This document shows, piece after piece, positions 134 to 62,987 of a stretch of DNA of 64,000 bases (within the stretch, counting starts at the first letter, position 1; each line of letters starts with the position of its first letter). The stretch is from Candidatus Gottesmanbacteria bacterium (GTDB taxonomy: Bacteria; Patescibacteriota; Microgenomatia; UBA10105; UBA927), in contig JAUXTO010000013.1 of assembly GCA_030679255.1 (NCBI GenBank), positions 18,696 through 82,695 on the forward strand, given 5' to 3'. Position numbers and translations under genes: made by a program. Below the pieces are notes generated by a model. That model was not told the DNA's origin, did not search any database, and was given only the letters and a program-made list of their open reading frames with translations.

Positions 134-766
134 TTACTGAAATAACCTTGCGAATGTTAATGTGTAGCGCAAATCTTTCGACCGGTACCGGATATGTTTG
201 GCTGGGACTCCCCCAACGACACTGTATGGTTCCACATCATGGGTCACGACCGCGCCACTTGCCACCACTGCGCCGCGACCGATATGGACTCCGGGGAGAA
301 TCGTCACCCTGGTACCAACTACCGAATAGTCATCGATCATCACAGCTCCCTCTTCCTCTTTAAAATCCGGATCATCGATGTCATGCTGCATGGTGAAAAT
401 TCTTACTTCACCGGCTATGGAAACATTATTCCCGATGCGAAGCGGTCGCCTTGCCGGTCGGAAAAAATCACGGATATAACTTCCTCCTTTTCGCTTATGC
501 CGTCCGTCAAGGAATGCATCATTACCGATCACCGTATTATGACCAATTTCAACACCAGATGGATTGTTAAATCTCGCAAGCCAATGAATCGAGCTATCCT
601 TGCCTATTTTTATGCGAAACAAATATCGGTAAAGGAGTAGCCTTATGGTATGACTCGGGATAAGCCCGGTCAGAGTACAAAGGAAAACCCAGAAATCTAT
701 AACAATACGCATATTAGTAAGCACCAAGCACCAATTTCCAAATCCCAAACAAATTCCAATTTTCAA
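134..766 (-). CDS. Hexapeptide-repeat (left-handed beta-helix) sugar acetyltransferase, WcaF-like
   Basis: C-terminal LbH repeats ([60 protein letters not shown]). Hydrophobic N-terminus with an RLLLYRYLFRIKIG motif, similar to the paralog at 6019-6561. The true start may be the internal Met near 712. Confidence 0.75.
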   Translation of the reverse strand: MKIGICLGFGNWCLVLTNMRIVIDFWVFLCTLTGLIPSHTIRLLLYRYLFRIKIGKDSSIHWLARFNNPSGVEIGHNTVIGNDAFLDGRHKRKGGSYIRDFFRPARRPLRIGNNVSIAGEVRIFTMQHDIDDPDFKEEEGAVMIDDYSVVGTRVTILPGVHIGRGAVVASGAVVTHDVEPYSVVGGVPAKHIRYRSKDLRYTLTFARLFQ

Positions 767-820
767 ATTCCAAACGTTTAGGTATTAGTGCTTAGAATTT
801 TGATATTGTTTGTGATTTGG

Positions 821-2035
821 TCATTGGAATTTGGAATTTCGTTCTTGAGCTACCTCTTCCAACACTTCCAACGTTTTTTTTGCCGCAGCCTCCCAAGTAA
901 ATTTACTCACCTGTTCAAGTCCTTTTTTTACTCTCCACTTCCCCTGCATCAAATTTCTATCCCGTACCGCAGAGAGAAGTCCCCGCGTGATACTCTTCGT
1001 GTCACCCGGATCCACGTAAACAGCAGCTTTTCCTGCAATTTCTGGTAAGCTTGATATCCTGCTCACCACGACCGGTACCGATCTCGCCATCGCTTCAAGA
1101 ACCGGCAAACCGAATCCTTCGTAGAGGCTGGGAAGCACAAAACAAAGTGCATGTTCATAAAGACAAGTGAGGTCTTTATCCGGCACAAAATCCAAAAATT
1201 TCACACGGTCAGATATTGCGCACTTCTCCGGAGCCGCAAGTATTTCTTCATAGAGCCACCCTTTCTTTCCGACGATCACCAAATCAATAGCACCGAACCG
1301 TTGTTTATTCGCCTTAAGAAATTCGGCGAATGCCTCAATGAGCCGCACGTAATTCTTCCGGGGCTGCAACGTCCCAACAGAAAGGATGTAGTTTGTTGAA
1401 ATATGATATTTACTTGTTATGGTTTGTTTGGTCATTGTAATTTGGGATTTGTAATTTGTCAGACCTGGGTACGTCACCACTACCTTTTGAGGCGTCACCC
1501 CGTATGCCTTGATTATAGCATTCTTGCTACATTCGCTGATGGTCAGTATGAGACGTGCGCGGGCGGCTGAATACGCCGTCCATTGAGTAAGCTGATACAG
1601 GTCATGCGGCCGGAATAATTCCGTATAATGGAGATAGGATACATCCATAATCGACATAACGCGCGGTACGCGCACAAATCTCGGTATGTAATGCGTAGGA
1701 GAAAATGCCACATCTGCCTTAGGTAAATCAGTTACCAACGCCAACGGCAGACGAAAAAGAGTCCAAAATTTCTTTGGCTGAAGTACGCGGTACTGCCACC
1801 AATCGGTCTGGGTAGGCATATCCGGAAGCGGCGCACTCGGGAGATAGATTCGAAACGTTGTGTTTTGGTGTTCACTTTCGACTTTCCCGCCTGCAACGCT
1901 TTGCGTAGCATTGCGGGCAGGTGACTTTCGACTTTCGACTTGCTCGTAAATATGTTTGAGAATCTCATACGCATATCGACCGATACCCACTCGTTCCCTT
2001 ACATTCGCTTCATAACCATCAATTGCAATTATCAT
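821..2035 (-). CDS. Glycosyltransferase family 4 (GT-B fold), full length
   Basis: C-terminal motif EGFGLPVLEAMARSVPVVVS..PEIAG. The N-terminal domain begins MIIAIDGYEA.. Start ATG at 2035-2033 overlaps the upstream stop (ATGA). Confidence 0.85.
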   Translation of the reverse strand: MIIAIDGYEANVRERVGIGRYAYEILKHIYEQVESRKSPARNATQSVAGGKVESEHQNTTFRIYLPSAPLPDMPTQTDWWQYRVLQPKKFWTLFRLPLALVTDLPKADVAFSPTHYIPRFVRVPRVMSIMDVSYLHYTELFRPHDLYQLTQWTAYSAARARLILTISECSKNAIIKAYGVTPQKVVVTYPGLTNYKSQITMTKQTITSKYHISTNYILSVGTLQPRKNYVRLIEAFAEFLKANKQRFGAIDLVIVGKKGWLYEEILAAPEKCAISDRVKFLDFVPDKDLTCLYEHALCFVLPSLYEGFGLPVLEAMARSVPVVVSRISSLPEIAGKAAVYVDPGDTKSITRGLLSAVRDRNLMQGKWRVKKGLEQVSKFTWEAAAKKTLEVLEEVAQERNSKFQ

Positions 2036-2577
2036 AGGTATCCCGGATAAACAACCTGTAATCTATTCTCTGGAATATTTAACAATTTACCAACGTCATT
2101 CTTTGTCGATTGTGAATCACAAAGGATAGTCTTGCATTCGCGTTTTATCCATGCAAGGCGTCGACCTTGTACCTCGAGGATACGTTTGGCAAACGTTTCG
2201 GGGTAACGCAAAAAACTCACATCATGGATGGTTGTGACTCCTAGAGCATGAGCCAGCGGAGGCTGTGTCCAGTCGCTGCTCCAAAAAACATCTATCGGGC
2301 CGGTGAACCACTCAACGGGTACGATATGAAGCGTATTCCAGATGAATTCCAGGAATGTAGGAGGAATCGGAACTGCCACTAAACGGATCCGGGAACTGCC
2401 CTCGCGCACCTCTTCAAAATACGCTTTAATGAAGGAAAGTTTCCGCAGTGAAGCACCAAAAAGAACATACTCGTTCTTCTGGTCAATGGCGAGGAGTGCT
2501 TTCACGAGATGACGGACATATTCGCCTACCCCCGTTCCCTCATGCACGATCTGGCTGATATCGATACCTATTTTCAT
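2032..2577 (-). CDS. GT4 N-terminal-domain-only protein (truncated glycosyltransferase fragment; possible pseudogene or standalone domain)
   Basis: 181 aa. Begins MKIGIDISQIVHEGTGVGEYVRHL like a GT4 N-domain and ends ..ENRLQVVYPGYL, exactly where the C-domain would begin. Its stop overlaps the start of the downstream full-length GT4 (ATGA). Confidence 0.55.
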   Translation of the reverse strand: MKIGIDISQIVHEGTGVGEYVRHLVKALLAIDQKNEYVLFGASLRKLSFIKAYFEEVREGSSRIRLVAVPIPPTFLEFIWNTLHIVPVEWFTGPIDVFWSSDWTQPPLAHALGVTTIHDVSFLRYPETFAKRILEVQGRRLAWIKRECKTILCDSQSTKNDVGKLLNIPENRLQVVYPGYL

Positions 2578-2617
2578 ATGTCTTACGTCCTACATCCTAC
2601 GTCTTATGTCCTACTTC
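2576..2617. repeat. Tandem heptamer tract, 6 units of TAYRTCY (minus-strand reading TAGGACR-like). It fills the entire gap between the galE stop and the start of the GT4 fragment.
   Basis: tatgtct|tacgtcc|tacatcc|tacgtct|tatgtcc|tacttct read directly. Same family as the tracts at 47259-47295 and 47706-47747. Confidence 0.8.
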
Positions 2618-3597
2618 TTCCCGTCTTCCAATCTCTTCTGATGCCATTTCCACGCCGTTTCTATGATGGTCGCCAATTCCGGGTATTCTGGTTCCCATCC
2701 GAGCACCGTTCGGGCTTTCTGATTATCCGCCCAGAGTTTGGCGGGGTCTCCGGGACGGCGCGGGGCAAACGAACGCATGACGCGCTGTCCAGTCACGCGC
2801 TCGACCGTATCCAATACTTCCAGATTGCTATATCCCTTCCCAACGCCGAGATTGATGGCTGTGGACTCTCCGCCGCGGGAGAGATACTCAACGGCTTTCA
2901 GATGCGCATGAGCCAGATCTACGACGTGTATGTAATCCCGTATGCATGTGCCATCCGGCGTTTCATAATCATTGCCATAGAGTTCAAATTTTTCCCGTTT
3001 CCCGGAAGCCACGTCAAGGGCGATAGGAATGATGTGAGATTCACGGCCGTGTGCCTCGCCCAAGCTTCCATCCGGAAGAGCCCCGGCAGCGTTAAAATAA
3101 CGAAGGATGACAAAGTTCGTGCTGTAAATCCGTCCATACCACTCAATCATCTCTTCGACCATCCGCTTGCTAGACCCATACACCGAAACCGGCGCAATCG
3201 CCGCATCCTCCATGACCGGTACGTGATCCGGATACCCATAAACAGCACTCGTCGAGGAAAAAATGACAGAAGGATTACCATGTAGCCTGACCGCCTCAAG
3301 CAAATTCAATCCCCCACGGAGATTATTATCAAAATATTCATACGGCTTCTCCATGGACTCTCCAGCGAGAGAGTAGGCAGCAAAATGAACGACCGCATCG
3401 AAAGACTCCGAGGCAAGAGCCTGATCAATATCTTCTTTATTACGGATATCCCCTACGATAAGCTTCGTGTCCCTGACTGCCTGCCTATGCCCGAGAGAAA
3501 GATTGTCAAAGACAACCGTTTCAAATCCCTGCTGCCTCAAAACTGCATTGGTGACGGAACCGATATAGCCTGCCCCCCCAGTGATGAGTATTTTCAT
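2611..3597 (-). CDS. galE: UDP-glucose 4-epimerase
   Basis: MKILITGGAGYIGS, ..YSLAGES.., ..YGSSKRMVE.. (YxxxK), and length 328 aa. Classic GalE SDR. Confidence 0.9.
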   Translation of the reverse strand: MKILITGGAGYIGSVTNAVLRQQGFETVVFDNLSLGHRQAVRDTKLIVGDIRNKEDIDQALASESFDAVVHFAAYSLAGESMEKPYEYFDNNLRGGLNLLEAVRLHGNPSVIFSSTSAVYGYPDHVPVMEDAAIAPVSVYGSSKRMVEEMIEWYGRIYSTNFVILRYFNAAGALPDGSLGEAHGRESHIIPIALDVASGKREKFELYGNDYETPDGTCIRDYIHVVDLAHAHLKAVEYLSRGGESTAINLGVGKGYSNLEVLDTVERVTGQRVMRSFAPRRPGDPAKLWADNQKARTVLGWEPEYPELATIIETAWKWHQKRLEDGKK

Positions 3598-3603
3598 GTA
3601 CCT

Positions 3604-3826
3604 TTATTCTACCCTATGCGGCCGGATGAGCGAAATGAGAATAAATGTGAGGAAATAGGCCGCTGCGTACCACGTCATCCTCTCTGCGGTAAAAAACGTC
3701 CAAGTCGCGAAAAGTGGTATTGCCAGGACCAGACACCCGAGTCCTACCCACACAAAAAATACTGGGCGGCGGACCAAGAGAAGCACGGCAAATACTATAA
3801 AAAATCCGACATCTTGTGGTTTCATA
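3604..3826 (-). CDS. Small 2-TM membrane protein (about 74 aa), function unknown
   Basis: Starts at the internal Met (MKPQDVGFF..), whose ATG overlaps the stop of the upstream UXS-like gene (ATGA). Two hydrophobic helices. The longer 94-aa ORF version would overlap the upstream gene by 67 nt. Confidence 0.45.
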
Positions 3827-4781
3827 ATGACCGGTAATAGGCAATGGTCTTTGAGAGTCCATCGGTGACGGATACGTTCGGTTCCCACGCGAGAACGGTC
3901 TTTGCCTTAGCAATATCCGGCTGGCGTTCATGCGGATCGTCTGTAGGCAATTCCTTGAATATAATTTCGGATGCAGATTTGATCATTTCTTTTATTTTCA
4001 AAGCCAAATCAACCATCCGATATTCTTCCGGATTACCCAAATTTATCACCTCGCCGTTCGTTTTTTCTCCAAACATTGCCTGCATGATGCCATCAACTAA
4101 ATCTGATACATAGCAAAATGACCGTGTCTGGGTCCCATCACCATAGACGGTCATGTGCTCGCCTTTGATCGCCTGGTTCACGAGATTGGATATCACCCGA
4201 CCATCGTCGGACCGCATCCTTGGCCCATAGGTGTTAAAAATACGGATAATGCGCGCATCGAGTTTGTATTTCCGTTGATAAACCATCGTCATCATTTCCC
4301 CGAACCGCTTTGACTCATCATAACATGCTCTGATCCCTACAGGATTCACGTTACCCCAATAGGTTTCCTTCTGTGGATGCTCTTTGGGATCCCCATACAC
4401 TTCCGACGTCGAAGCAAATAGAAATTTCGCACCGGTTTCCTGAGCGACTTCCAAGAGATTTCTCGTGCCAATCGAATTGACGAGCGCAGTTTCTTCAGGA
4501 TATTTTTGGTAATCCACGACCGAGGCAGGTGAAGCGAGATGAAAAATATAAGAAACGTTATTTAATTGTTTTATGGTTTCACGGTTCAATGGTTCTGAAA
4601 CATCATGATCGAGGAAAATAAACTGTGAATTGTCAAATGCATCAGAAAGATTTTCTTTTCTCCCAGTAACTAAATTGTCCACGCAGATGACGCTGTACCC
4701 GGCTCCAAGCAGCTTATCGCAAAGGTGCGAACCGATAAACCCCGCTCCTCCCGTCACCAAGCACGTTTTCTCATCGTTCAT
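3822..4781 (-). CDS. UDP-glucuronate decarboxylase family SDR (UXS / ArnA C-domain-like)
   Basis: LVTGGAGFIGSHL, ..ACYDESKRFGE.., DDGRVISN. 319 aa. Paralog at 32796-33914. Confidence 0.8.
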   Translation of the reverse strand: MNDEKTCLVTGGAGFIGSHLCDKLLGAGYSVICVDNLVTGRKENLSDAFDNSQFIFLDHDVSEPLNRETIKQLNNVSYIFHLASPASVVDYQKYPEETALVNSIGTRNLLEVAQETGAKFLFASTSEVYGDPKEHPQKETYWGNVNPVGIRACYDESKRFGEMMTMVYQRKYKLDARIIRIFNTYGPRMRSDDGRVISNLVNQAIKGEHMTVYGDGTQTRSFCYVSDLVDGIMQAMFGEKTNGEVINLGNPEEYRMVDLALKIKEMIKSASEIIFKELPTDDPHERQPDIAKAKTVLAWEPNVSVTDGLSKTIAYYRSL

Positions 4782-45150: not shown

Positions 45151-46204
45151 AGAATATATACTTTATTGTAACCCATCCATAGATGAGAACGAAACATAAA
45201 CACAAAAAGGGGTGGATAAACCATGCACGATCACGGATCTTCCGCCAACCACGAATGCTGTCATACAACGGAATGATCCATGTGGCGCATATAATTATAA
45301 CCAACACAAGACGCAGTACACCCATACCCGATACATCTCCAAATCTGCGCACGCCCTTTCGTTTTTCCGCTTCTTTCCCAAATCTGTATTGAGACAAAAA
45401 TAATGCTCTCCGCTTCAAAAAATTCCAAATATTTCCATACCCGGTCAGATGAAGGATCGAATCTTTGACAAATGCATAGGTATCATATCCCTTGAGTATC
45501 AAATCAACGTTCACATCCATATCAAAATAGAATCCCGGTGCGACTTGCGCATGCTCCATGAGTATCTTGCGTCGAACGAGAAACCCATTGGCGCCAATGG
45601 TCGTCATAGTATCCGGTTCAAATCGAACCGTATAATATGCTCCGCAGTCTTTTACAATCCCGGATTCTTGGTACGTATCATATATATAGGAAAGTCTGTC
45701 TGCTTTTCCCAAATACCATACAAGTGGATCACCGGCGCCAAAAAGCGCAAAATACCGGTCCAGAAGTGAAGCGTGAGGGTCATAATGGTACCGAAGTGTT
45801 TCGACTCCAACCACATCTTTTTGCTGGCGAAACGGCTGTACCATGTTTTGGAACCACAAATCATGCGGAAGTACGTTATCATGGTCTATCATCGCGAGGA
45901 TCTCGTTTTTTGCATGACTGATACCGGTGGCCTTATTAAATTCTGCACTTTGTTTGGCAGGATCGACAGCTATCCACCGAACGTTATACCCGGAAGCAAT
46001 CTCGCGCGTCTTGTCGCCTGATGCGCCATCAGCAATGATGATCTCTACCCTATCCTGAGGATATTGTTGACTTCGAATACTCGTAAGGCACCGCCCCAGG
46101 GTCCGAGATGAATTATGTGTCGCAATGACGACACTAATAGTGGGATAGTTGTTATTTTTCATGCGTTTGCCGTAATACGAGAAATGCAACGCGCGCGGTA
46201 TCAT
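45119..46204 (-). CDS. GT2 glycosyltransferase with C-terminal TM helices (GtrB/ArnC-like polyprenol-phosphate glycosyltransferase architecture)
   Basis: ISVVIATHNS, IADGASGDKT, DHDN. Two or three C-terminal TM helices. The likely start is Met at 46162. Confidence 0.7.
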   Translation of the reverse strand: MIPRALHFSYYGKRMKNNNYPTISVVIATHNSSRTLGRCLTSIRSQQYPQDRVEIIIADGASGDKTREIASGYNVRWIAVDPAKQSAEFNKATGISHAKNEILAMIDHDNVLPHDLWFQNMVQPFRQQKDVVGVETLRYHYDPHASLLDRYFALFGAGDPLVWYLGKADRLSYIYDTYQESGIVKDCGAYYTVRFEPDTMTTIGANGFLVRRKILMEHAQVAPGFYFDMDVNVDLILKGYDTYAFVKDSILHLTGYGNIWNFLKRRALFLSQYRFGKEAEKRKGVRRFGDVSGMGVLRLVLVIIICATWIIPLYDSIRGWRKIRDRAWFIHPFLCLCFVLIYGWVTIKYIFYGNFRKFLEK

Positions 46205-47258
46205 CCCAGTTCATGGATGCAACACGTTTCACTCCTGCTGCCTGATAACGCCGATACCGCGGTTGATCACCCCAAAGGTTGAGTGTTTCTTCTGCGAGTT
46301 TTTCTGGGTATCCTGCACCCACAAGAATTCCTGTTTTACCATCGACAATGACATCTTGCACCCCCGCGGTTCTATATCCAATGGCGGGCGTTCCCTGCGA
46401 GGCGGCTTCAGGCACGACGAGTCCCCAACCCTCATGGACAGATGGCATCAGGAGAATATGTGCCCGGGCAAGTAGCTCAAATTTTTTCGCATCCGTGACC
46501 CGTCCAAAAAATTTTACTCGCCCGTAAACTCCAAGATTTTTTGCAATTCGCTCAAGATCCTTTTGATATCCTTCGCTATCTCCTCCTACAATCCACAGAT
46601 TTGCGAATGGTATGATCGCCTGAATACGGGAAAACGCGGAAATTGCATCCGCTATCCCTTTAAATTTCTGAAGCCGCGCCACGACGATCATCGTCAAGGT
46701 TGTTGCTTTAGGGTACCGCGTCGCAACTTTTGGGAGTGTTACGCCCATCGGAAGTACCGTTATGCGAGCAGGATCAAACCCTTCCCGAAGAAGAGCCGCT
46801 CTTGTAGACTGCGAAATGGCCAATACAGGACTACTCCGATAGAGTAAAACGTATATTTTTTCAATAAAACGGGCTAGTAACGCAAAAGGATAAGGAAGCA
46901 GCCGAAAAAAAAGTGAACCCGCGACCTCGCAGACGAGAAGTACGGTTTTATGACGCGCATAGAAAATGCTAAAAAAAGGATACCAATGCACTTCATCAAC
47001 GATGATATCAACCGTCTTTCTAAAACGGAAAATATAATAAAACATGGCATAAAGATGCACACTCCACCATACCCCCCGGCGGATAATATTTACTCCATCT
47101 AAAATTTCATCACTAACCGCACCGTTATACTGTTCGCTAAATAGTGTCACAGTGTGGCCATGGGCAACCCACCGCTTCGCGATCTCATGCGTCAGAAGTT
47201 CAGCTCCTCCGGCACGGGGATTTTTTATATCACGCCAATTGAGAATGAGAATGTGCAT
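46152..47258 (-). CDS. Glycosyltransferase family 4
   Basis: ..MPSVHEGWGLVVPEAASQGTPAIGYRTAGVQDVI.. Confidence 0.8.
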   Translation of the reverse strand: MHILILNWRDIKNPRAGGAELLTHEIAKRWVAHGHTVTLFSEQYNGAVSDEILDGVNIIRRGVWWSVHLYAMFYYIFRFRKTVDIIVDEVHWYPFFSIFYARHKTVLLVCEVAGSLFFRLLPYPFALLARFIEKIYVLLYRSSPVLAISQSTRAALLREGFDPARITVLPMGVTLPKVATRYPKATTLTMIVVARLQKFKGIADAISAFSRIQAIIPFANLWIVGGDSEGYQKDLERIAKNLGVYGRVKFFGRVTDAKKFELLARAHILLMPSVHEGWGLVVPEAASQGTPAIGYRTAGVQDVIVDGKTGILVGAGYPEKLAEETLNLWGDQPRYRRYQAAGVKRVASMNWDDTARVAFLVLRQTHEK

Positions 47259-47295
47259 ATAGGACTTAGGACATAAGACTTAGGACTTAAGGGAC
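47259..47295. repeat. Heptamer tract (plus-strand TAGGAC/TTAGGAC-like units). It spans the stop codon and last 5 codons of the four-helix-bundle gene and the 21-nt gap before the GT4 start.
   Basis: ataggacttaggacataagacttaggacttaagggac read directly. Inverse complement of the tract at 47706-47747. Confidence 0.75.
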
Positions 47296-47651
47296 TTTTG
47301 TTTCCAATATTTCATTAATCCCGAAAGTAACCTCCCAACAATTTCTGCCTGAGTATGTAATGCATCATAATCATTTTCGGTAATATAACCGAGGTCTCTA
47401 GCCAATAGAACATGATATTTCACTTCTTCTAAAGACCCTGTCGCCTGATATAAAAACTGCACAAACTCTTTACTATGTCCTCTGGCGTTTCCTTCAACAA
47501 TATTTGCAACTATGGAAACTGCAGCGCGTCGTAATTGACTGATCAAAGCAAATTTTTCATCACTTGGAAATTTGATTGTTATTTTATAAATCAACAGCAC
47601 AAATTTATGCGATTCTATAAAAACTTCAAGATTTTCAAACCTATCAGCCAT
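47280..47651 (-). CDS. Four-helix-bundle protein (23S rRNA intervening-sequence protein family, TIGR02436-like)
   Basis: 123 aa. ..LISQLRRAAVSIVANIVEGNARGHSKEF..LYQATGSLEEVKYHVLLARDLGYI.. is characteristic. Strong RBS aaaagagg upstream. Confidence 0.75.
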   Translation of the reverse strand: MADRFENLEVFIESHKFVLLIYKITIKFPSDEKFALISQLRRAAVSIVANIVEGNARGHSKEFVQFLYQATGSLEEVKYHVLLARDLGYITENDYDALHTQAEIVGRLLSGLMKYWKQKSLKS

Positions 47652-47664
47652 AGTACCTCTTTTC

Positions 47665-47747
47665 TGACTTAGGAATTAGGACTTAAGATCTGCGAACATC
47701 CACTCTATCCTACGTCCTATGTCCTACGTCCTATGTCCTATGTCCCA
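47665..47747. repeat. Composite repeat upstream of the four-helix-bundle gene: TTAGGA(A/C) units at 47665-47688, then 6 tandem YGTCCTA heptamers at 47706-47747, in inverted orientation to each other
   Basis: tgacttaggaattaggacttaaga ... tatccta|cgtccta|tgtccta|cgtccta|tgtccta|tgtccca. Confidence 0.8.
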
Positions 47748-48566
47748 CTACCCCGTATTTATGCGGAAATTTAGTTCTGGGTCAAATAGCCATTTTCTTT
47801 TATTCACGTTGTCATAGTAATGAAGAATCCTTAACCGGTAAAAAACAGCGAGCGTTTCCCAAAGCACATTGGCGATGATATTCCAAAAATTCTTTGACGT
47901 AATACTGGATACACCGCCGAACGTAAGCTCTACAGGTGCCTCGTAAATCCGGGTATACCCTAGCCGGTGTGCAACGGAAAGAATTTCGATATCAAAAGCA
48001 AATTCCTTCACCAAGAGTCTGGGTAGAACATCTTCAAGCACAACACGACGGTATAATTTGAGGCCCACCTGTGAATCACGGATGTTTAATCCAAATAGTA
48101 TCTTTACCAACACTTGATACCCGAAAGACAATACTTTTCGAAAGAATGGGTATTCTACTTTCGAAGCCGGGTGTCTCTTACTACCAATGATACAATCAGC
48201 GTTATACCAATTAAAATGTGCAAGAAGTATGGATATTCCCTCTGACTTCAAATCGCCTCCCGCATCGATAAATCCAATGATGTCTCCGTGGCTTTTTGCC
48301 ATGCCAAAACGCACTGCATAACCTTTTCCATGATTGGTCGCATAACCCGTGATAACTATATGGGGTGAAGTAACTTTTGATACTTCTTCCCGGCTTCGAT
48401 CCATGTACCCGTCTACAACCACGATAATCTCATAATCAATCCCAAGAGTATCAAGCTCCGCCACAATGGACCGTAAATTTTGGGCAATTACTTTTTCCTG
48501 TTTATAGACAGGAACGATGAGTGATAACAATTTAAGCTTTTTTCGTAACATACTTATAATAAACAA
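47748..48566 (-). CDS. GT2 polyprenol-phosphate glycosyltransferase (DPM1-like)
   Basis: LSLIVPVYKQE, VVVDGYMDRS, ..IGFIDAGGDL.. Confidence 0.75.
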   Translation of the reverse strand: MFIISMLRKKLKLLSLIVPVYKQEKVIAQNLRSIVAELDTLGIDYEIIVVVDGYMDRSREEVSKVTSPHIVITGYATNHGKGYAVRFGMAKSHGDIIGFIDAGGDLKSEGISILLAHFNWYNADCIIGSKRHPASKVEYPFFRKVLSFGYQVLVKILFGLNIRDSQVGLKLYRRVVLEDVLPRLLVKEFAFDIEILSVAHRLGYTRIYEAPVELTFGGVSSITSKNFWNIIANVLWETLAVFYRLRILHYYDNVNKRKWLFDPELNFRINTG

Positions 48567-57151: not shown

Positions 57152-58285
57152 TTAATTCAATTTTTTACGGAGACGAACGTACCACCCACACAAAACATCT
57201 GCTGCAAATATATATGCAAACGGCAGTATCGGTAATAAATATCGCGCAGAGGATTGATTTAATGAAATCATGATAAAGTAGGCAATCGTCCACAAATACA
57301 CTATTTGCTGAGCAAGAGATAAACGAAAAAATGAACGAGTGTGATTCAAAATCCAAATCCATGTCAGACCAAAAAGAACGGGCCAGCTGAAATGCCAATT
57401 CGCGTCGCGAATCACTGGCTGGTCGCCCCACCATACATGCCAACGATTAAAGAAAATTAAATCCCACACCGTAAAAAAACGATTTAATTTACTCACATTG
57501 TAGATATAACTCCACTTTTGAATCCCTAAGACACTCCACGGCGTATACCCACGATAATATATTGGAATATACGAAACAATTGCGACAACAGCGATCGATA
57601 GGTAACCGAAAATGAGCCACCCAATGAGATTTCTCTTATGAAACATAATATATGCAGTATAAATAGCCAGGAGCGGTAGAGAAATCGAAAATATTTTTGT
57701 CATCATTGCTGCTCCAAGCAATACCATGGAGATGAATATCAAAAATCCGCTTTTTTCAAGTCCTTTGATAAAAAAATAGACGGACCATATCTGAAACGTC
57801 ATCATAGGAATGTCCAACAGTGGCATAAATTTAAATTGACTCGTAATTAAAGGCTGAAATAAGATGATTATAATAAGTATCAATACGATGGGCGTCGAAG
57901 AAATAATTTCTTTTCCCAAAAAATATATACCGGTTAAAAAGAATATAAATACTACTATCATGATGATATTCGGATTATCAAATAATACGATCGACAATGA
58001 AAATAGTTGCTTCCCCAACGGTGGCGTGCCAGGATTGACATCCAATAAGCTTTCCCCCTTGAGATAGGCTCCTGCTGCATATGCATAAAGCGTCTCATCG
58101 GGAATGGATGCGGTCGGATGTATACTAATATATTGTGAATTAAGATAAGCATTTTTATATGCTTCATATCCGGCCCAATACGAACCTTGAAAATACGAAC
58201 GCGACTCATACATCAGAAATCCGAAACGGATAATGATAAATGTGACAAGGAGGATAGTTATCATCCGTGGTTTACGCCTCATCAT
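57152..58285 (-). CDS. PMT_2/ArnT-like GT-C glycosyltransferase (polyprenol-phosphate-sugar-dependent)
   Basis: First extracytoplasmic loop ..SIPDETLYAYAAGAYLKGESL..NPGTPPLGKQLFSL carries a DE motif like ArnT/PMT families. About 10 TM helices. Confidence 0.55.
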   Translation of the reverse strand: MMRRKPRMITILLVTFIIIRFGFLMYESRSYFQGSYWAGYEAYKNAYLNSQYISIHPTASIPDETLYAYAAGAYLKGESLLDVNPGTPPLGKQLFSLSIVLFDNPNIIMIVVFIFFLTGIYFLGKEIISSTPIVLILIIIILFQPLITSQFKFMPLLDIPMMTFQIWSVYFFIKGLEKSGFLIFISMVLLGAAMMTKIFSISLPLLAIYTAYIMFHKRNLIGWLIFGYLSIAVVAIVSYIPIYYRGYTPWSVLGIQKWSYIYNVSKLNRFFTVWDLIFFNRWHVWWGDQPVIRDANWHFSWPVLFGLTWIWILNHTRSFFRLSLAQQIVYLWTIAYFIMISLNQSSARYLLPILPFAYIFAADVLCGWYVRLRKKLN

Positions 58286-58830
58286 AGTTCGTTAAATTGA
58301 TTAATGTTTTTGCGTTCCTCTATTGCTGCATCAATTGATTTATGGAGCGGGAGTAAGATCGGAGATTGTTTCTCTGGTTGCCAAAGCATCTCAGCGGGAA
58401 GTTGGCTTCTTAATGTGTGTAAGATTGATTCATGAACTACAATATAATCCTGTATTATGGGTATCATAGAGCTGATATCGTTATGTTCCTGCTTCGATAA
58501 TACGATGAGCAAGGATAAACGATGAGCGTAATTATTCGAACGATCTAGTGCATCAAGCGCGAGAACATATTGTTTGTATTCAAAGAGCGTTTTTGCTTCA
58601 ACGAGATATTTATCGGATAAAGAAAGGTAATATTTCGTTTTTGCGATACTTCCGAAGTACCAATACTTTTTTATATCATCAACTGCTCTTGAAATTCTGT
58701 AAAGCTTGTTCCCCGGCATATAGGAAGGATAAGGAAGAACATAGCCGGCAAAAGCTGGACGGACAATAAACAGTAAGCAATAAACAATAAGCAATAAGAA
58801 AAAAAGGGGAATTCTCCAATTATTTATCAT
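58282..58830 (-). CDS. Signal-anchored or secreted hypothetical protein
   Basis: N-terminal hydrophobic segment ending ..PAFAG. No recognisable catalytic motifs. Confidence 0.4.
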   Translation of the reverse strand: MINNWRIPLFFLLLIVYCLLFIVRPAFAGYVLPYPSYMPGNKLYRISRAVDDIKKYWYFGSIAKTKYYLSLSDKYLVEAKTLFEYKQYVLALDALDRSNNYAHRLSLLIVLSKQEHNDISSMIPIIQDYIVVHESILHTLRSQLPAEMLWQPEKQSPILLPLHKSIDAAIEERKNINQFNEL

Positions 58831-59723: not shown

Positions 59724-61366
59724 TTTGCCGTACGCCGAACTTTTGTATCACTAAAACGTATCTTCACGGTATGGGTTCCTTTCGGAACAAAAAACGTCAT
59801 CAACCCTCGATGGAGAGAGCTTTGAAATTCTATTGGAATAATGTTGTTGTCCACAAATACATTCCAACCCGGAAAATAAAGGGTGTTTTCGACGAGTTGG
59901 ACTTCATGTTCATTCGTTATAGCATACTCTCGGGTCGTTGTATTGCGTAGACGCGTCTCTATACGAGCATCCCCACTGATAACTTCAATCGGGGCTTTTG
60001 GCCGCTGTTCCATAAATCGAACGGACCAAATCGGACTCGCCTCACCCGTGTCTGTCGTACCATCAAAAATTCCGGTAAAATATTCATGCGGATAATTTAT
60101 GTACCCGTTCGGATACCACATATTCGAGCTGATAATTATAGATAATAAACAAAATACCGTACAAAAAAACCGTGTGACATGTTGACCTTGCCGATATATT
60201 TTGAGTATGTGAGATATCGTAAGCCCACCGAGTACCGCAGCAAGAAATGTGGTTAACGAAAGAAACCGCCATGGAAATTGCAATTTAATCATGAGAGGAA
60301 TATTCGTCCATATGCCTGCAGATTGTGGTGTCATGAGAAATAACGCAGAAAAAAATAAGACCAAGCACCCACCGATCAACCATCTATCTCTCCAATGTCT
60401 TGCTTTCCACATACACCAAAATGATCCTATGATTGCTATCCAACCGCTCATCCCGATCTCCTTACTAAACTCAGTTCCACCACCAAAATTCCATGAAGAA
60501 GAGATAAACCAATTCCATGCAGTAAATCCACCAAGCGCACCTTGCGTCACTTTATCAATTAAAATATATTTTTGTTCAAAAACTGCCGGCACCCAAAAAA
60601 AAGCGGAAAGTAAAAAACCAAACATAAGTCCCATCAGACCGAAAAATACAAAAAAATGCTTCTGTTTCGTTTCATAAACACAAAGATATAAACCATATAT
60701 TCCAACAATAGGTAAAAATATTACACTCAGCGCATTGTGACTTAAAATAAGTCCCGCAGTGCTTAAACCGAATATAATCGCCGACGATATATACTGTTTA
60801 GGATACCGGGCCAACCGTAATAAGCTCCAACATAGCAATGGAGGATATATAAATGCAACGTGCTCCCCGAGTGCGCCACGTACATATAAATCCACAAACC
60901 GATATGGAGCAAATGTGTACAAGATCGAAGCGACTACTCCGGAGACTATTCCCAACTGTTCGCGTATCCAAAAAAAGATTGTTAAAGCACTTAAAATATA
61001 GGCAACTGCAAAAACCAATTTTGTACTGTCAACCAAGGAAAATCCTACGATATGAAATAGTGACGCGACATAAGAAGGCAGAGGATATACGAATTCAATT
61101 ATTGGACTGCCGTATCCCCAATTGAGATTGGAAGCCCACCGGGGTACAATGTTTCCTTCCATAAACGATGCATAAAAATTTGCAATTCGGGCTATATGGA
61201 TCCTACCATCATGCGTCAGGGGTATACCTTCATGAAATAGAGGCACCAAAGGGATCGTTGATACGACCACGAGCCAAAACCACGAAGATTTCACCATTCG
61301 TCTTATTATGTTCATAAATTGTATGAATGTATTCACGCACCTATCGAATGAGTAACTTTTTTCCAT
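59636..61366 (-). CDS. Polytopic membrane protein, family B paralog
   Basis: THDGRIHIARIANFYASFMEGNIVPRWASNLNWGYGSPIIEFVYPLPSYVASLFH. C-terminal ..LYFPGWNVFVDNN.. plus a TM anchor. Confidence 0.5.
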   Translation of the reverse strand: MEKSYSFDRCVNTFIQFMNIIRRMVKSSWFWLVVVSTIPLVPLFHEGIPLTHDGRIHIARIANFYASFMEGNIVPRWASNLNWGYGSPIIEFVYPLPSYVASLFHIVGFSLVDSTKLVFAVAYILSALTIFFWIREQLGIVSGVVASILYTFAPYRFVDLYVRGALGEHVAFIYPPLLCWSLLRLARYPKQYISSAIIFGLSTAGLILSHNALSVIFLPIVGIYGLYLCVYETKQKHFFVFFGLMGLMFGFLLSAFFWVPAVFEQKYILIDKVTQGALGGFTAWNWFISSSWNFGGGTEFSKEIGMSGWIAIIGSFWCMWKARHWRDRWLIGGCLVLFFSALFLMTPQSAGIWTNIPLMIKLQFPWRFLSLTTFLAAVLGGLTISHILKIYRQGQHVTRFFCTVFCLLSIIISSNMWYPNGYINYPHEYFTGIFDGTTDTGEASPIWSVRFMEQRPKAPIEVISGDARIETRLRNTTTREYAITNEHEVQLVENTLYFPGWNVFVDNNIIPIEFQSSLHRGLMTFFVPKGTHTVKIRFSDTKVRRTANWISALSIVVLTSIGIGGFLWQKRRSHHQ

Positions 61367-62987
61367 ATCGAAGGGAGCGTAATAAAACCCATAACCCTAA
61401 CAAGCCAAACGAGATACTACTTATGATGTTTGCGACCGTTCTGACCCTTGTGTCACTGAAATATATGGAGACGTTATGCTCGCCAAGAGGCGCATAAAAA
61501 GTTATGAGTCCCCGATACGCAGGATCCTGATATTCAATCTGCGTCTCCTTGCCGTCAATAAATACCTTCCATCCCGGAAAATACAGCGTGTTTTCTGCTA
61601 TGCGCAGCGTTTCTTCTGCCATCACCCTATATTCTCTCTGTGTTGTATTCTTGTGTGTGAGCGTTACCGTACCGCTTCCTTCTATAAGTAGAGCGGGTTC
61701 GGTCGGGCGCTTCCCCATCTGTCGAATCGACCATATCGGCGAACTTTCTCCAGTATCTGTGGTGCTCGGATATATGGCGCTATAGACTGATTCGTCACGC
61801 TGTTGATATCCCGATGGATGCCACATGTTTGCAGTAAAAAAAATAGACAGGAAACAAAAAACAATAAGCAGAATATGCTTATTGTTCCGAAGTAATGATG
61901 GGATTGATATTCCTCCCAAAATAGCAGAAGCCAATACCGAAAGTGATAAAAATCTCCAGGGAAATTGAAACTTTTGAAGTAACACTATCCTCTGCCAGAT
62001 AACACCTGATGCTTCCGTCATCATAAATAATGAAAGTATCAGCATTCCTAACGTTCCAATAAGTACGATACGGATCTTCTGAACCTTCGTTTTCCACAGA
62101 ACAATAACCGACATCACGATACCGATCCATTGGGCAAAACCCAGAAATTTCGGCAACACTTCGCCGCTACCATAATTCCACGCTGAATAGAAAAACCACG
62201 TCCATGGTACAAAACGGTTCAGTGCTTCCCCTGCCGTCACAATATCGCGGAGTGTATATTTTCCTTCAATAAATGCTGGAATCCAAAAAAAGGCAGAAAG
62301 AGCAAAACCGAGAGACAAAAGACAAGAGACAAGAAGCAAGAAACGAAACTTATTCTTTGCTTCAAAAAAACATAAATAGAGAGAGTACATCAATATCAAA
62401 GGCAACATCATGAGAGCAACTGCGTTATGAGATAAAATGAGTCCGGCAACTCCGAATGAAATCGCAAATATAGAAATCAATGTGGAGCCTTTCGATTTGG
62501 AAAGCACTAATAACCCCCATAAAATCAACGGAGGAAATACAAAGGCCACATGCTCGCCAAGCGCACCGCGGACATAAAGATCCACAAATCGGTATGGAGC
62601 AAATATATACAACAGGGCTCCTATAAGCCCTGCACGTTTTCCAAACGCGCTACTCATCCACAGATACATCGTGAGAGCACTTAAAATATATGCAACACCA
62701 AAAACAAGCTTTGTACTGTCTACAAACGAAAATCCTATACCATGAAACAGCGAAGCAACATACGAAGGCAACGGATAGAGAAACATGAGTATTGGATGTC
62801 CGTATCCCCAATTTAGGTTTCCTGCCCAACGTGGGATGAGATTTCCCTCAGATAGCGACTGGTAAAAATTGGCAATTCGCGCGACATGATCGGGCGTATC
62901 ATGACCCATGGGCAACCCCGGTCGAAAAAGGTTCAAGATCGGAAGTATCGAAAGAAAAATAAGCAGCAACGGAATGAATCGTTTCAT
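61341..62987 (-). CDS. Polytopic membrane protein, family B paralog
   Basis: GHDTPDHVARIANFYQSLSEGNLIPRWAGNLNWGYGHPILMFLYPLPSYVASLFH. About 60% identical to 59636-61366 over the N-terminal 200 aa. Confidence 0.5.
   Translation of the reverse strand: MKRFIPLLLIFLSILPILNLFRPGLPMGHDTPDHVARIANFYQSLSEGNLIPRWAGNLNWGYGHPILMFLYPLPSYVASLFHGIGFSFVDSTKLVFGVAYILSALTMYLWMSSAFGKRAGLIGALLYIFAPYRFVDLYVRGALGEHVAFVFPPLILWGLLVLSKSKGSTLISIFAISFGVAGLILSHNAVALMMLPLILMYSLYLCFFEAKNKFRFLLLVSCLLSLGFALSAFFWIPAFIEGKYTLRDIVTAGEALNRFVPWTWFFYSAWNYGSGEVLPKFLGFAQWIGIVMSVIVLWKTKVQKIRIVLIGTLGMLILSLFMMTEASGVIWQRIVLLQKFQFPWRFLSLSVLASAILGGISIPSLLRNNKHILLIVFCFLSIFFTANMWHPSGYQQRDESVYSAIYPSTTDTGESSPIWSIRQMGKRPTEPALLIEGSGTVTLTHKNTTQREYRVMAEETLRIAENTLYFPGWKVFIDGKETQIEYQDPAYRGLITFYAPLGEHNVSIYFSDTRVRTVANIISSISFGLLGLWVLLRSLRYGKKLLIR

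Follow-up and report, generated by a model that had tools for sequence, protein, structure and literature searches.

The S23p/four-helix-bundle (4HB) genes are among the commonest unexplained small gene families of bacteria, and homologous PF05635 open reading frames (ORFs) occur in intervening sequences (IVSs) of ribosomal RNA (rRNA) genes in Coxiella, Leptospira, Brucella and the candidate phyla radiation (CPR). In Coxiella, the termini of the 23S IVS form a 28-bp stem that is cut by RNase III, two to three strain-variable GACAGAT heptamers immediately precede the S23p ORF, and the 5' RNase III cut falls at the first heptamer repeat (PMC4990558); 23S_rRNA_IVP ORFs have been found in CPR rRNA insertions too (PMC11270868). 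Here we describe a 4HB gene that sits between inverted tandem heptamer arrays in an operon of protein-coding genes, within a 64,000-nt stretch (hereafter the window) of a Candidatus Gottesmanbacteria (CPR) genome (contig JAUXTO010000013.1, positions 18,696 to 82,695). A sequence-only reading of this stretch had named the IVS as the classical carrier of the gene family and had likened the inverted flanks of the gene to IVS stems, a comparison strengthened by the strain-variable heptamers at the RNase III site of the Coxiella IVS and by a design that we find conserved in five lineages and family-wide.

Tandem heptamers are also described as the short tandemly repeated repetitive (STRR) sequences of cyanobacteria (GGGGAYT/CCCCAGT and others) and the GGGAATC repeats of Xanthomonas, which are mostly intergenic, often lie within operons, have a genome-specific unit and a variable copy number, and frequently occur as convergent pairs able to form stem-loops (PMC4692102). 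The Xanthomonas study, where an over-representation of heptameric simple sequence repeats is reported and the 4HB gene family is not mentioned, lists in its supplementary table GGGAATC repeat #15 between bccP (XCC0517) and XCC0516, overlapping the XCC0516 start (PMC4692102). XCC0516, with this GGGAATC array at its start, is a crystallised 4HB protein (2GSC). In the searchable literature, which is incomplete, the heptamer strings of our locus were not found in any paper, and no link between 4HB genes and heptamer arrays was found apart from the Coxiella IVS. A further class comprises the repetitive extragenic palindromic (REP) sequences, bacterial interspersed mosaic elements (BIME) and enterobacterial repetitive intergenic consensus (ERIC) sequences, short non-coding palindromic elements that reside in transcribed operon spacers, form RNA hairpins and vary in presence between strains; in contrast to the locus described here they are conserved in sequence, lack heptamer periodicity and enclose no ORF, and REPs have a dedicated RAYT transposase.

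The 4HB gene (47280..47651, minus strand, 123 aa) belongs to a co-directional polysaccharide operon, the genes of the region all being on the minus strand, and lies between two glycosyltransferase genes, GT2 (47748-48566) and GT4 (46152-47258). Its product had been called a four-helix-bundle protein from the letters alone, and profile searches agree, with full-length matches to PF05635 (E = 4e-36, 123.9 bits against a cut-off of 33.8, profile positions 1-106 of 106) and TIGR02436 (E = 2e-34, 117.8 bits against a cut-off of 24), the S23p or 23S-rRNA-IVS-protein family. Read in the sense direction, the order is GT2 stop, (TAGGACR)x6, a 17-nt spacer, about three complementary units, GAGG, the 4HB ATG, (GTCCTAA-type)x5 and the GT4 ATG. 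The 5' arm (47706..47747, minus strand; sense GGGACAT AGGACAT AGGACGT AGGACAT AGGACGT AGGATAG) begins directly after the GT2 stop TAG (47748..47750, minus strand); on the plus strand it reads TATCCTA CGTCCTA TGTCCTA CGTCCTA TGTCCTA TGTCCCA, six units in perfect 7-nt register, four of them exact YGTCCTA and the two terminal ones with a single mismatch each. Then follow, all on the minus strand, the non-repeat spacer AGTGGATGTTCGCAGAT (47689..47705), which is kept in locus L001; about three units at 47665..47688 that read TTAGGAM (TTAGGAA/TTAGGAC/TTAAGA) on the plus strand (sense CTTAAGTCCTAATTCCTAAGTC), internal complementary units that were found in the window and L001 only, and weakly in L263; and a Shine-Dalgarno-like GAGG (47656..47659), read from the sequence, 4 nt before the 4HB ATG. 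The 3' arm (47259..47297, minus strand; sense AAGTCCC TTAAGTCC TAAGTCT TATGTCC TAAGTCC TAT, the GTCCTAA family) consists on the plus strand of five TAGGAC/TAAGAC-type units (TAGGACT TAGGACA TAAGACT TAGGACT TAAGGGAC), covers the stop and the final five codons of 4HB (K S L K S), and extends through the 21-nt interval (47259-47279) that separates this stop from the GT4 start codon (47256..47258, minus strand).

These three tracts, together with six TAGGACR-family units in a distant spacer at 2576..2617, are the four TAGGACR/YGTCCTA tracts that the sequence-only reading had located, and all four were found in the sequence. A window scan with TAGGACNTAGGAC, allowing ≤2 mismatches, yielded 14 matches compared to 2.57 ± 1.65 in shuffled sequences (0/100 shuffles reached 14), with 14/14 matches inside the four tracts, and TRF detected the heptamer tracts independently. 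The tracts are similar to STRR sequences in that they consist of tandem 7-nt units, occur repeatedly (two spacers of the window share the four tracts) and vary in copy number between lineages.

Exact-protein look-ups and the contexts of homologues revealed both filled and empty versions of the site. The slot GT2-4HB-GT4 is filled in five lineages (the window, L001, L259-262, L263-268 and L269-272), whose 4HB proteins are 83-100% identical, and the array-4HB-array block measures 466-509 nt in the window, L001, L259, L263 and L270. In all five the gene is preceded by a TAGGACR/TAAGACR array and followed by a GTCCTAA/GTCTTAA/ATCTTAA array, whereas in four relatives just 3-7 nt separate the GT2 stop from the GT4 ATG, with neither arrays nor 4HB. 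Since the whole block is present or absent together, flush from stop to ATG, both arrays and the 4HB gene are one module of ~490 nt, gained or lost in one piece at the junction of the GT2 stop with the GT4 start. The window and L001 differ by a synonymous divergence (dS) of 0.067 in the 4HB gene and 1.30 in the adjacent GT2, and the 4HB genes of the filled loci L259 and L263 retain 83-85% nucleotide and 85-86% amino acid identity to that of the window, with amino acid identities of 58% for GT2 and 37-40% for the flippase; the empty-site relatives reach 67-77% for GT2 and 43-70% for the flippase. Because the 4HB gene is far less diverged than the adjoining genes and the filled and empty sites are patchily distributed, these sequence comparisons show that the module has been exchanged horizontally and independently of its flanks.

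Presence and absence at a precise site and this exchange apart from the flanks would also be expected if the arms were DNA-level terminal inverted repeats, that is, ends of a non-autonomous mobile element that form hairpins or cruciforms in single-stranded or extruded DNA and are served by a recombinase in trans, with RNA pairing incidental. ORF-less inverted arrays in the window and in relatives point the same way. We hold this explanation to be possible and compatible with pairing of the arms in RNA, but do not favor it, as no transposase or recombinase was identified within or beside the module, no target-site duplication is visible when filled and empty sites are compared, and the module termini differ in sequence and length between lineages, even close ones; homologous recombination via the conserved GT2 end and GT4 start could equally transfer the module. 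The module also stands at a recombination boundary, the flippase and GT2 of L270 being 90-91% identical to those of the window and its downstream GT4 just 40%. The GT4 allele (46152-47258) is replaced in most of the relatives compared (L270, L263, L259 and L357-L359).

Compared with the rRNA IVSs, the module carries a homologous PF05635 ORF, has complementary termini that enclose this ORF in a long (here predicted) stem, rides on the host transcript without a mobility gene, and has a patchy distribution; like the Coxiella IVS in particular, it has variable tandem heptamers upstream of the ORF. Three differences set it apart: it lies between a protein-coding stop and start in an operon, both of its arms are heptamer arrays throughout, and its ORF is under purifying selection, unlike the Coxiella ORF, which is reported to be decaying. 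The ratio of nonsynonymous to synonymous divergence (dN/dS) of 0.08-0.15 for 4HB in all pairs shows that the module encodes a functional protein. Given its position outside any 23S or 16S rRNA gene, the module is not a member of the rRNA IVS class, and no Rfam family was found at gathering score anywhere in the window. With regard to STRR and GGGAATC repeats as described, the difference is that here a gene and its two arrays together make up a single insertable element; the repeat unit at this locus, TAGGACR, is moreover not G4-forming.

Subsequently, we examined unit number along the filled lineages. The upstream arm has 4-7 units and the gap from the 4HB stop to the GT4 ATG is 21, 42, 49, 21 and 21 nt, so that array copy number drifts in 7-nt steps; variation of repeat number among strains, which had been foreseen, is hence confirmed between lineages. 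Public assemblies break exactly in heptamer arrays at the start of L002, the end of L262 and the end of L353, which could reflect either an artefact of k-mers at repeats or unit numbers that differ within the population. Variable copy number, breaks within arrays and the overlap of the 3' array with the final five 4HB codons are what phase-variable tracts would produce, with unit gain or loss switching 4HB or GT4 expression or altering the 4HB C-terminus. This suggestion of the sequence-only reading has become highly improbable: no promoter-like site was found upstream of 4HB on the sense strand or in the tracts, and hence none with a spacing that the tracts could alter, hardly any units fall within ORFs, the compared lineages keep the C-terminal KSLKS and the stop, the variation observed is between lineages only, and assemblies can be expected to break at repeats as an artefact.

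To place the locus within its gene family, we gathered 80 metagenomic 4HB loci, which are non-redundant with a median nearest-neighbor identity of 60%, and compared the 90 nt upstream of each gene with the 90 nt around its stop. A flank duplex passing the threshold of z < -3 was present in 42/72 4HB loci (58%; median z = -3.5), compared to 2/35 neighboring genes and 4/72 mismatched flank pairs (6%). Of 138 4HB flanks, 63 contained a tandem array, with a repeat period of 7 in 55 cases, 8 in 7 and 12 in 1 and no other period; at the same loci, 15 of 1139 control windows did so, an approximately 30-fold enrichment beside 4HB genes. The complementary flanks consist of arrays whose unit is specific to the locus, such as AGGAATC, GTGATAA, GGGGACT, CTAGTAG, GAGAGTC and CCTACCA. 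The 4HB gene is co-directional with both neighbors in 39/54 loci, with median gaps of 73 and 50 nt, and the arms start a median of 3 nt past the upstream stop and finish a median of 4.5 nt ahead of the downstream start. No Rfam match to rRNA was obtained at heptamer-flanked 4HB loci (20/20 tested). Inverted period-7 arrays of arbitrary unit, with arms flush with the neighboring ORFs, are thus typical of the 4HB family in many phyla. Both this generality and the insertion of arrays and gene as a single unit with empty sites in relatives are new beyond the first reading of the window. One of the surveyed loci, L292 (contig Ga0123356_10003358, 1043-2773), has its 4HB gene between arrays of GGGGACT and of AGTCCCC, a unit that has been reported from the heptamer repeats of Nostoc; more such arrays are present in neighboring spacers of L292.

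The control windows bear on the simplest alternative, neutral slippage, by which the arrays would be functionless by-products of replication and their inverted arrangement around 4HB would have no function. The arrays in those windows were of period 7 in 15/15 cases, heptameric repeats are over-represented in the published survey (PMC4692102), heptamer arrays of arbitrary unit occur commonly in viral contigs, the units of orthologous spacers are unrelated, and a solo array exists in the window. Such a process would not readily account for the 30-fold enrichment of arrays beside 4HB genes, for complementarity of the arms in 58% of loci but 6% of controls, for arms and gene being present or absent together, for arms flush with neighboring stop and start codons, or for the strong polarity of the arms, and we consider it quite unlikely. 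This polarity is seen in the 5' arm, which has more G than C in 40/46 loci (P = 3e-7) and is purine-rich in 38/48 loci. A G-rich 5' arm would not be predicted by a symmetric DNA structure, which counts against terminal inverted repeats and argues for a transcript-level role or a transcription-coupled process.

Folding of the minus-strand transcript supports such a role. In the segment 47240-47770, the 5' array is predicted to pair with the 3' array across the ORF (minimum free energy (MFE) z = -4.3), the arms being 84% complementary over 31 nt, and partition-function folding gives ~28 expected long-range pairs, MFE structure and ensemble together lying at about 28-29; the stable pairing between flanks that the sequence-only reading had anticipated is therefore predicted. 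The last two 5' units are predicted to pair with the internal complementary units (47665..47688) as a local hairpin with the spacer 47689..47705 as its loop. The GT2 UAG stands in the base of the predicted long-range stem opposite the GT4 AUG, which is partly paired, and folding would therefore restore the stop-start proximity of the empty sites. Long-range pairing was predicted in 19/19 folded transcripts (27-70 pairs in the MFE structure and 16-67 expected in the ensemble), drawn from the five lineages of Gottesmanbacteria, two distant loci with TAGGAC arms and twelve of the metagenomic loci.

Collectively, the best overall explanation is an inverted-armed 4HB insertion module whose arms pair in the transcript and whose stem is processed by RNase III in the manner of an IVS, to which we assign a probability of about 0.6. 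The module, having no promoter of its own, would be transcribed by read-through. Its arms would zip into an interrupted stem of 30-60 bp with the ORF looped out, an arrangement that we infer from the folding models, and the stem would place the upstream stop beside the downstream start. Disturbance of the host operon would be slight because folding would rejoin stop and start, much as 23S IVSs extend an rRNA helix, and pairing would survive slippage because repeat-built arms tolerate register shifts. By homology with rRNA IVSs, the stem is a likely RNase III substrate and is probably cut, which would free the 4HB message from the polycistronic transcript.

Several observations weigh against this explanation. 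Approximately 40% of the family members have no detectable complementary flanks; arrays also occur solo, as at 2576..2617; and a 4HB gene is present at 2/120 TAGGAC loci (among the matches listed), with arrays far outnumbering 4HB genes. A local hairpin that uses part of the 5' arm competes with the long-range stem in the window and L001. In addition, mismatches in the arm duplexes do not bear the wobble signature of a paired sense strand (43 of G.U type versus 44 of A.C type), a symmetry that a DNA-level process or a common origin of the arms would give and selection for RNA pairing would not; the wobble counts were accordingly discarded as a signal of RNA selection, and DNA-level homogenization, as the terminal-inverted-repeat alternative predicts, is the process that they suit. 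Comparison by hand of the stem base across the Gottesmanbacteria lineages gave one double change and two mismatches and is uninformative, and alignment-based covariation over the five lineages was given up because variable unit number makes column homology arbitrary. For the IVS-stem interpretation as first proposed, the predicted pairing, the copy-number variation and the conserved inverted flanks hold, while the third tract does not fit. That tract (2576..2617) has no inverted partner within 700-4000 and no stable fold (z = +0.97); it follows from solo arrays of this kind that arrays need neither gene nor partner.

The unit sequence itself was examined by a scan for three consecutive TAGGACN units in 185,579 species genomes. 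At least 120 loci were recovered, in Vibrionaceae, Shewanella, Gemmatimonadota, Acidobacteriota, Bacteroidota, Planctomycetota, Patescibacteria and others; ~90% of the arrays were intergenic, without orientation bias relative to genes (this and the following counts being among the matches listed). TAGGAC as a conserved cross-phylum signal was nevertheless rejected: on viral contigs, two control heptamers of equal composition gave 84 and 35 loci versus 17 for TAGGACN, and orthologous spacers use other, unrelated units, so that the TAGGAC sequence is not special. The notion that TAGGAC arrays mark 4HB genes was likewise dropped, as a search with phmmer and an HMM built from 120 homologues found the gene at just the 2 of 120 listed loci mentioned above; the association runs from gene to arrays. 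Both of these loci, L015 (Caulobacteraceae) and L078 (Gemmatimonadales), have inverted TAGGAC/GTCCTA arrays. A third candidate, a mobile gene between direct array pairs, failed because the enclosed genes are ordinary and unrelated. Some genomes hold many TAGGACN arrays, namely Acidobacteria SJ750 and Chitinophagales MAG_MBR_AS.25 with at least 7 loci each and Gemmatimonadales Bin_42 with at least 5, and arrays in such multi-locus genomes reach 19 units. ORF-less array-loop-array hairpins of TAGGACN are also numerous (e.g., L009, L036, L105 and L113).

A further alternative, offered in the sequence-only reading, is that the arrays are iterons bound by a regulator; we add that this regulator might be the oligomeric 4HB protein itself, which would then autoregulate its cassette or act on other arrays of the genome. 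One unit family is common to the 4HB arms and another spacer in the window, arrays sharing the unit of the 4HB flanks often recur in other nearby spacers of the metagenomic loci, 4-7 units are typical of the arrays, and 2GSC, the solved homologue, is a pentamer. Against this, units are wholly different between orthologous spacers and between moderately similar 4HB proteins, the window holds arrays of another unit too (AAATTCC), and binding would leave the inverted complementarity and the flush ORF borders of the arms unexplained; with the orthologous spacers of relatives pointing away from it in particular, we regard protein-binding arrays as unlikely.

The 4HB protein has structurally solved relatives (phmmer against the PDB: 2GSC, i.e., XCC0516, E = 5.5e-19; 2RLD, E = 2e-5), both deposited with five chains, and no further 4HB genes or pseudogenes were found in the window. 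It shares a fold family with Avd, the accessory protein of diversity-generating retroelements (DGRs), as seen in matches to the bAvd-like profile PF22296 (E = 7e-12) and to NF033474. Avd proteins related to 4HB bind nucleic acid, a point in favor of protein-binding arrays. Unlike a true Avd, the 4HB protein scores 39.4 against the NF033474 cut-off of 80, and its examined neighbors are GT2, GT4 and a flippase, with no reverse transcriptase and no template or variable repeat among them, and a DGR Avd component was rejected on these two grounds.

Taken together, these data link two puzzles, the S23p/4HB genes and the heptameric intergenic repeats (STRR and Xanthomonas GGGAATC). The 4HB gene usually resides in a cassette with inverted heptamer arms that is gained or lost as a unit and moves between genomes, and odd spacers and contig breaks beside 4HB genes in CPR and other genomes are an expected consequence of this cassette design. 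Pairing and processing of the arms as proposed would extend the intervening-sequence concept from rRNA to messenger operons, and the locus lends itself to experiments on RNase III cleavage, on coupling of translation across the stem and on binding of the repeats by protein. A wider generalization, which we put forward tentatively and hold to be doubtful, is that 4HB cassettes between inverted heptamer arrays are widespread, undescribed, non-autonomous "loop-out" elements that could settle in any transcribed spacer in many phyla. The same tentative proposal would cover the rRNA helix and the operon junction as alternative sites, a source of STRR-type arrays, whose origin has been a puzzle since 1990, ORF-less hairpins and solo arrays as relics, and an Avd-like protein that acts on the heptamer RNA or DNA of its own cassette (mobilization through an RNA intermediate, or transcript protection or processing); as a whole, this set of corollaries is no less doubtful.

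The remaining heptamer arrays of the window lie away from the module. The solo array at 2576..2617 (minus strand; sense TAGGACA TAAGACG TAGGATG TAGGACG TAAGACA T) occupies the spacer between galE and the gene for a GT4 N-domain protein and contains no ORF. It had been described as a 42-nt tract making up the whole spacer with the stop and start codons embedded in it; the codons are indeed embedded, and the spacer is smaller than claimed, the galE stop (2611-2613) and the ATG (2575-2577) being 33 nt apart. The downstream gene, taken earlier for a GT4 fragment, instead encodes a conserved stand-alone family of ~181 aa with hundreds of same-length homologues. Homologues of ~180 aa of this 181-aa protein (2032-2577) in Gottesmanbacteria/Patescibacteria always stand before a full-length GT4, with a 4-nt overlap. 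Orthologous galE-GT4N spacers carry an AATTAGN hairpin in L353, a CTAGTAG hairpin in L354 and a solo AAGTTWA array in L355, with no ORFs, and these genomes accordingly carry heptamer arrays as regular, fast-evolving, STRR-like components of their operon spacers.

An ORF-less inverted heptamer hairpin (AAATTCC/TTGGAAT; fold z = -3.3) is located at 724-847 in the minus-strand sense, its AAATTCC-type units overlapping the end of a GT4 gene (stop 821-823) and its TTGGAAT/TTTGGGA-type units leading to the next gene. It looks like a pair of module arms without the gene, and both this hairpin and the array at 2576..2617 may be relics or free-standing relatives of module arms. A third array, of TTGTAAT/TTGGGAT type, lies at 1435-1459 inside the 404-aa GT4 gene (821-2035) and is 80-89% complementary to the 731-773 array ~660 nt away. 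The N-terminal part of the same GT4 contains an in-frame GTCGAAA x2.7 (1923-1941) at a low-complexity insertion that holds a palindrome too; relatives have (AGCTGTC)n at this position (L353 and L354, ~2640-2720), and the L353 contig ends within it. Two period-7 tracts lie within ORFs elsewhere in the window. The first (58763-58798, CAATAAG/CAATAAA) is situated in the first codons of the ORF 58282-58830 and, as it encodes the hydrophobic segment FFLLLIVYCLLFIV, probably belongs with coding repeats rather than with the spacer arrays. The second (62311-62342, AGAGACA/AGACAAG) lies within the long ORF 61341-62987.

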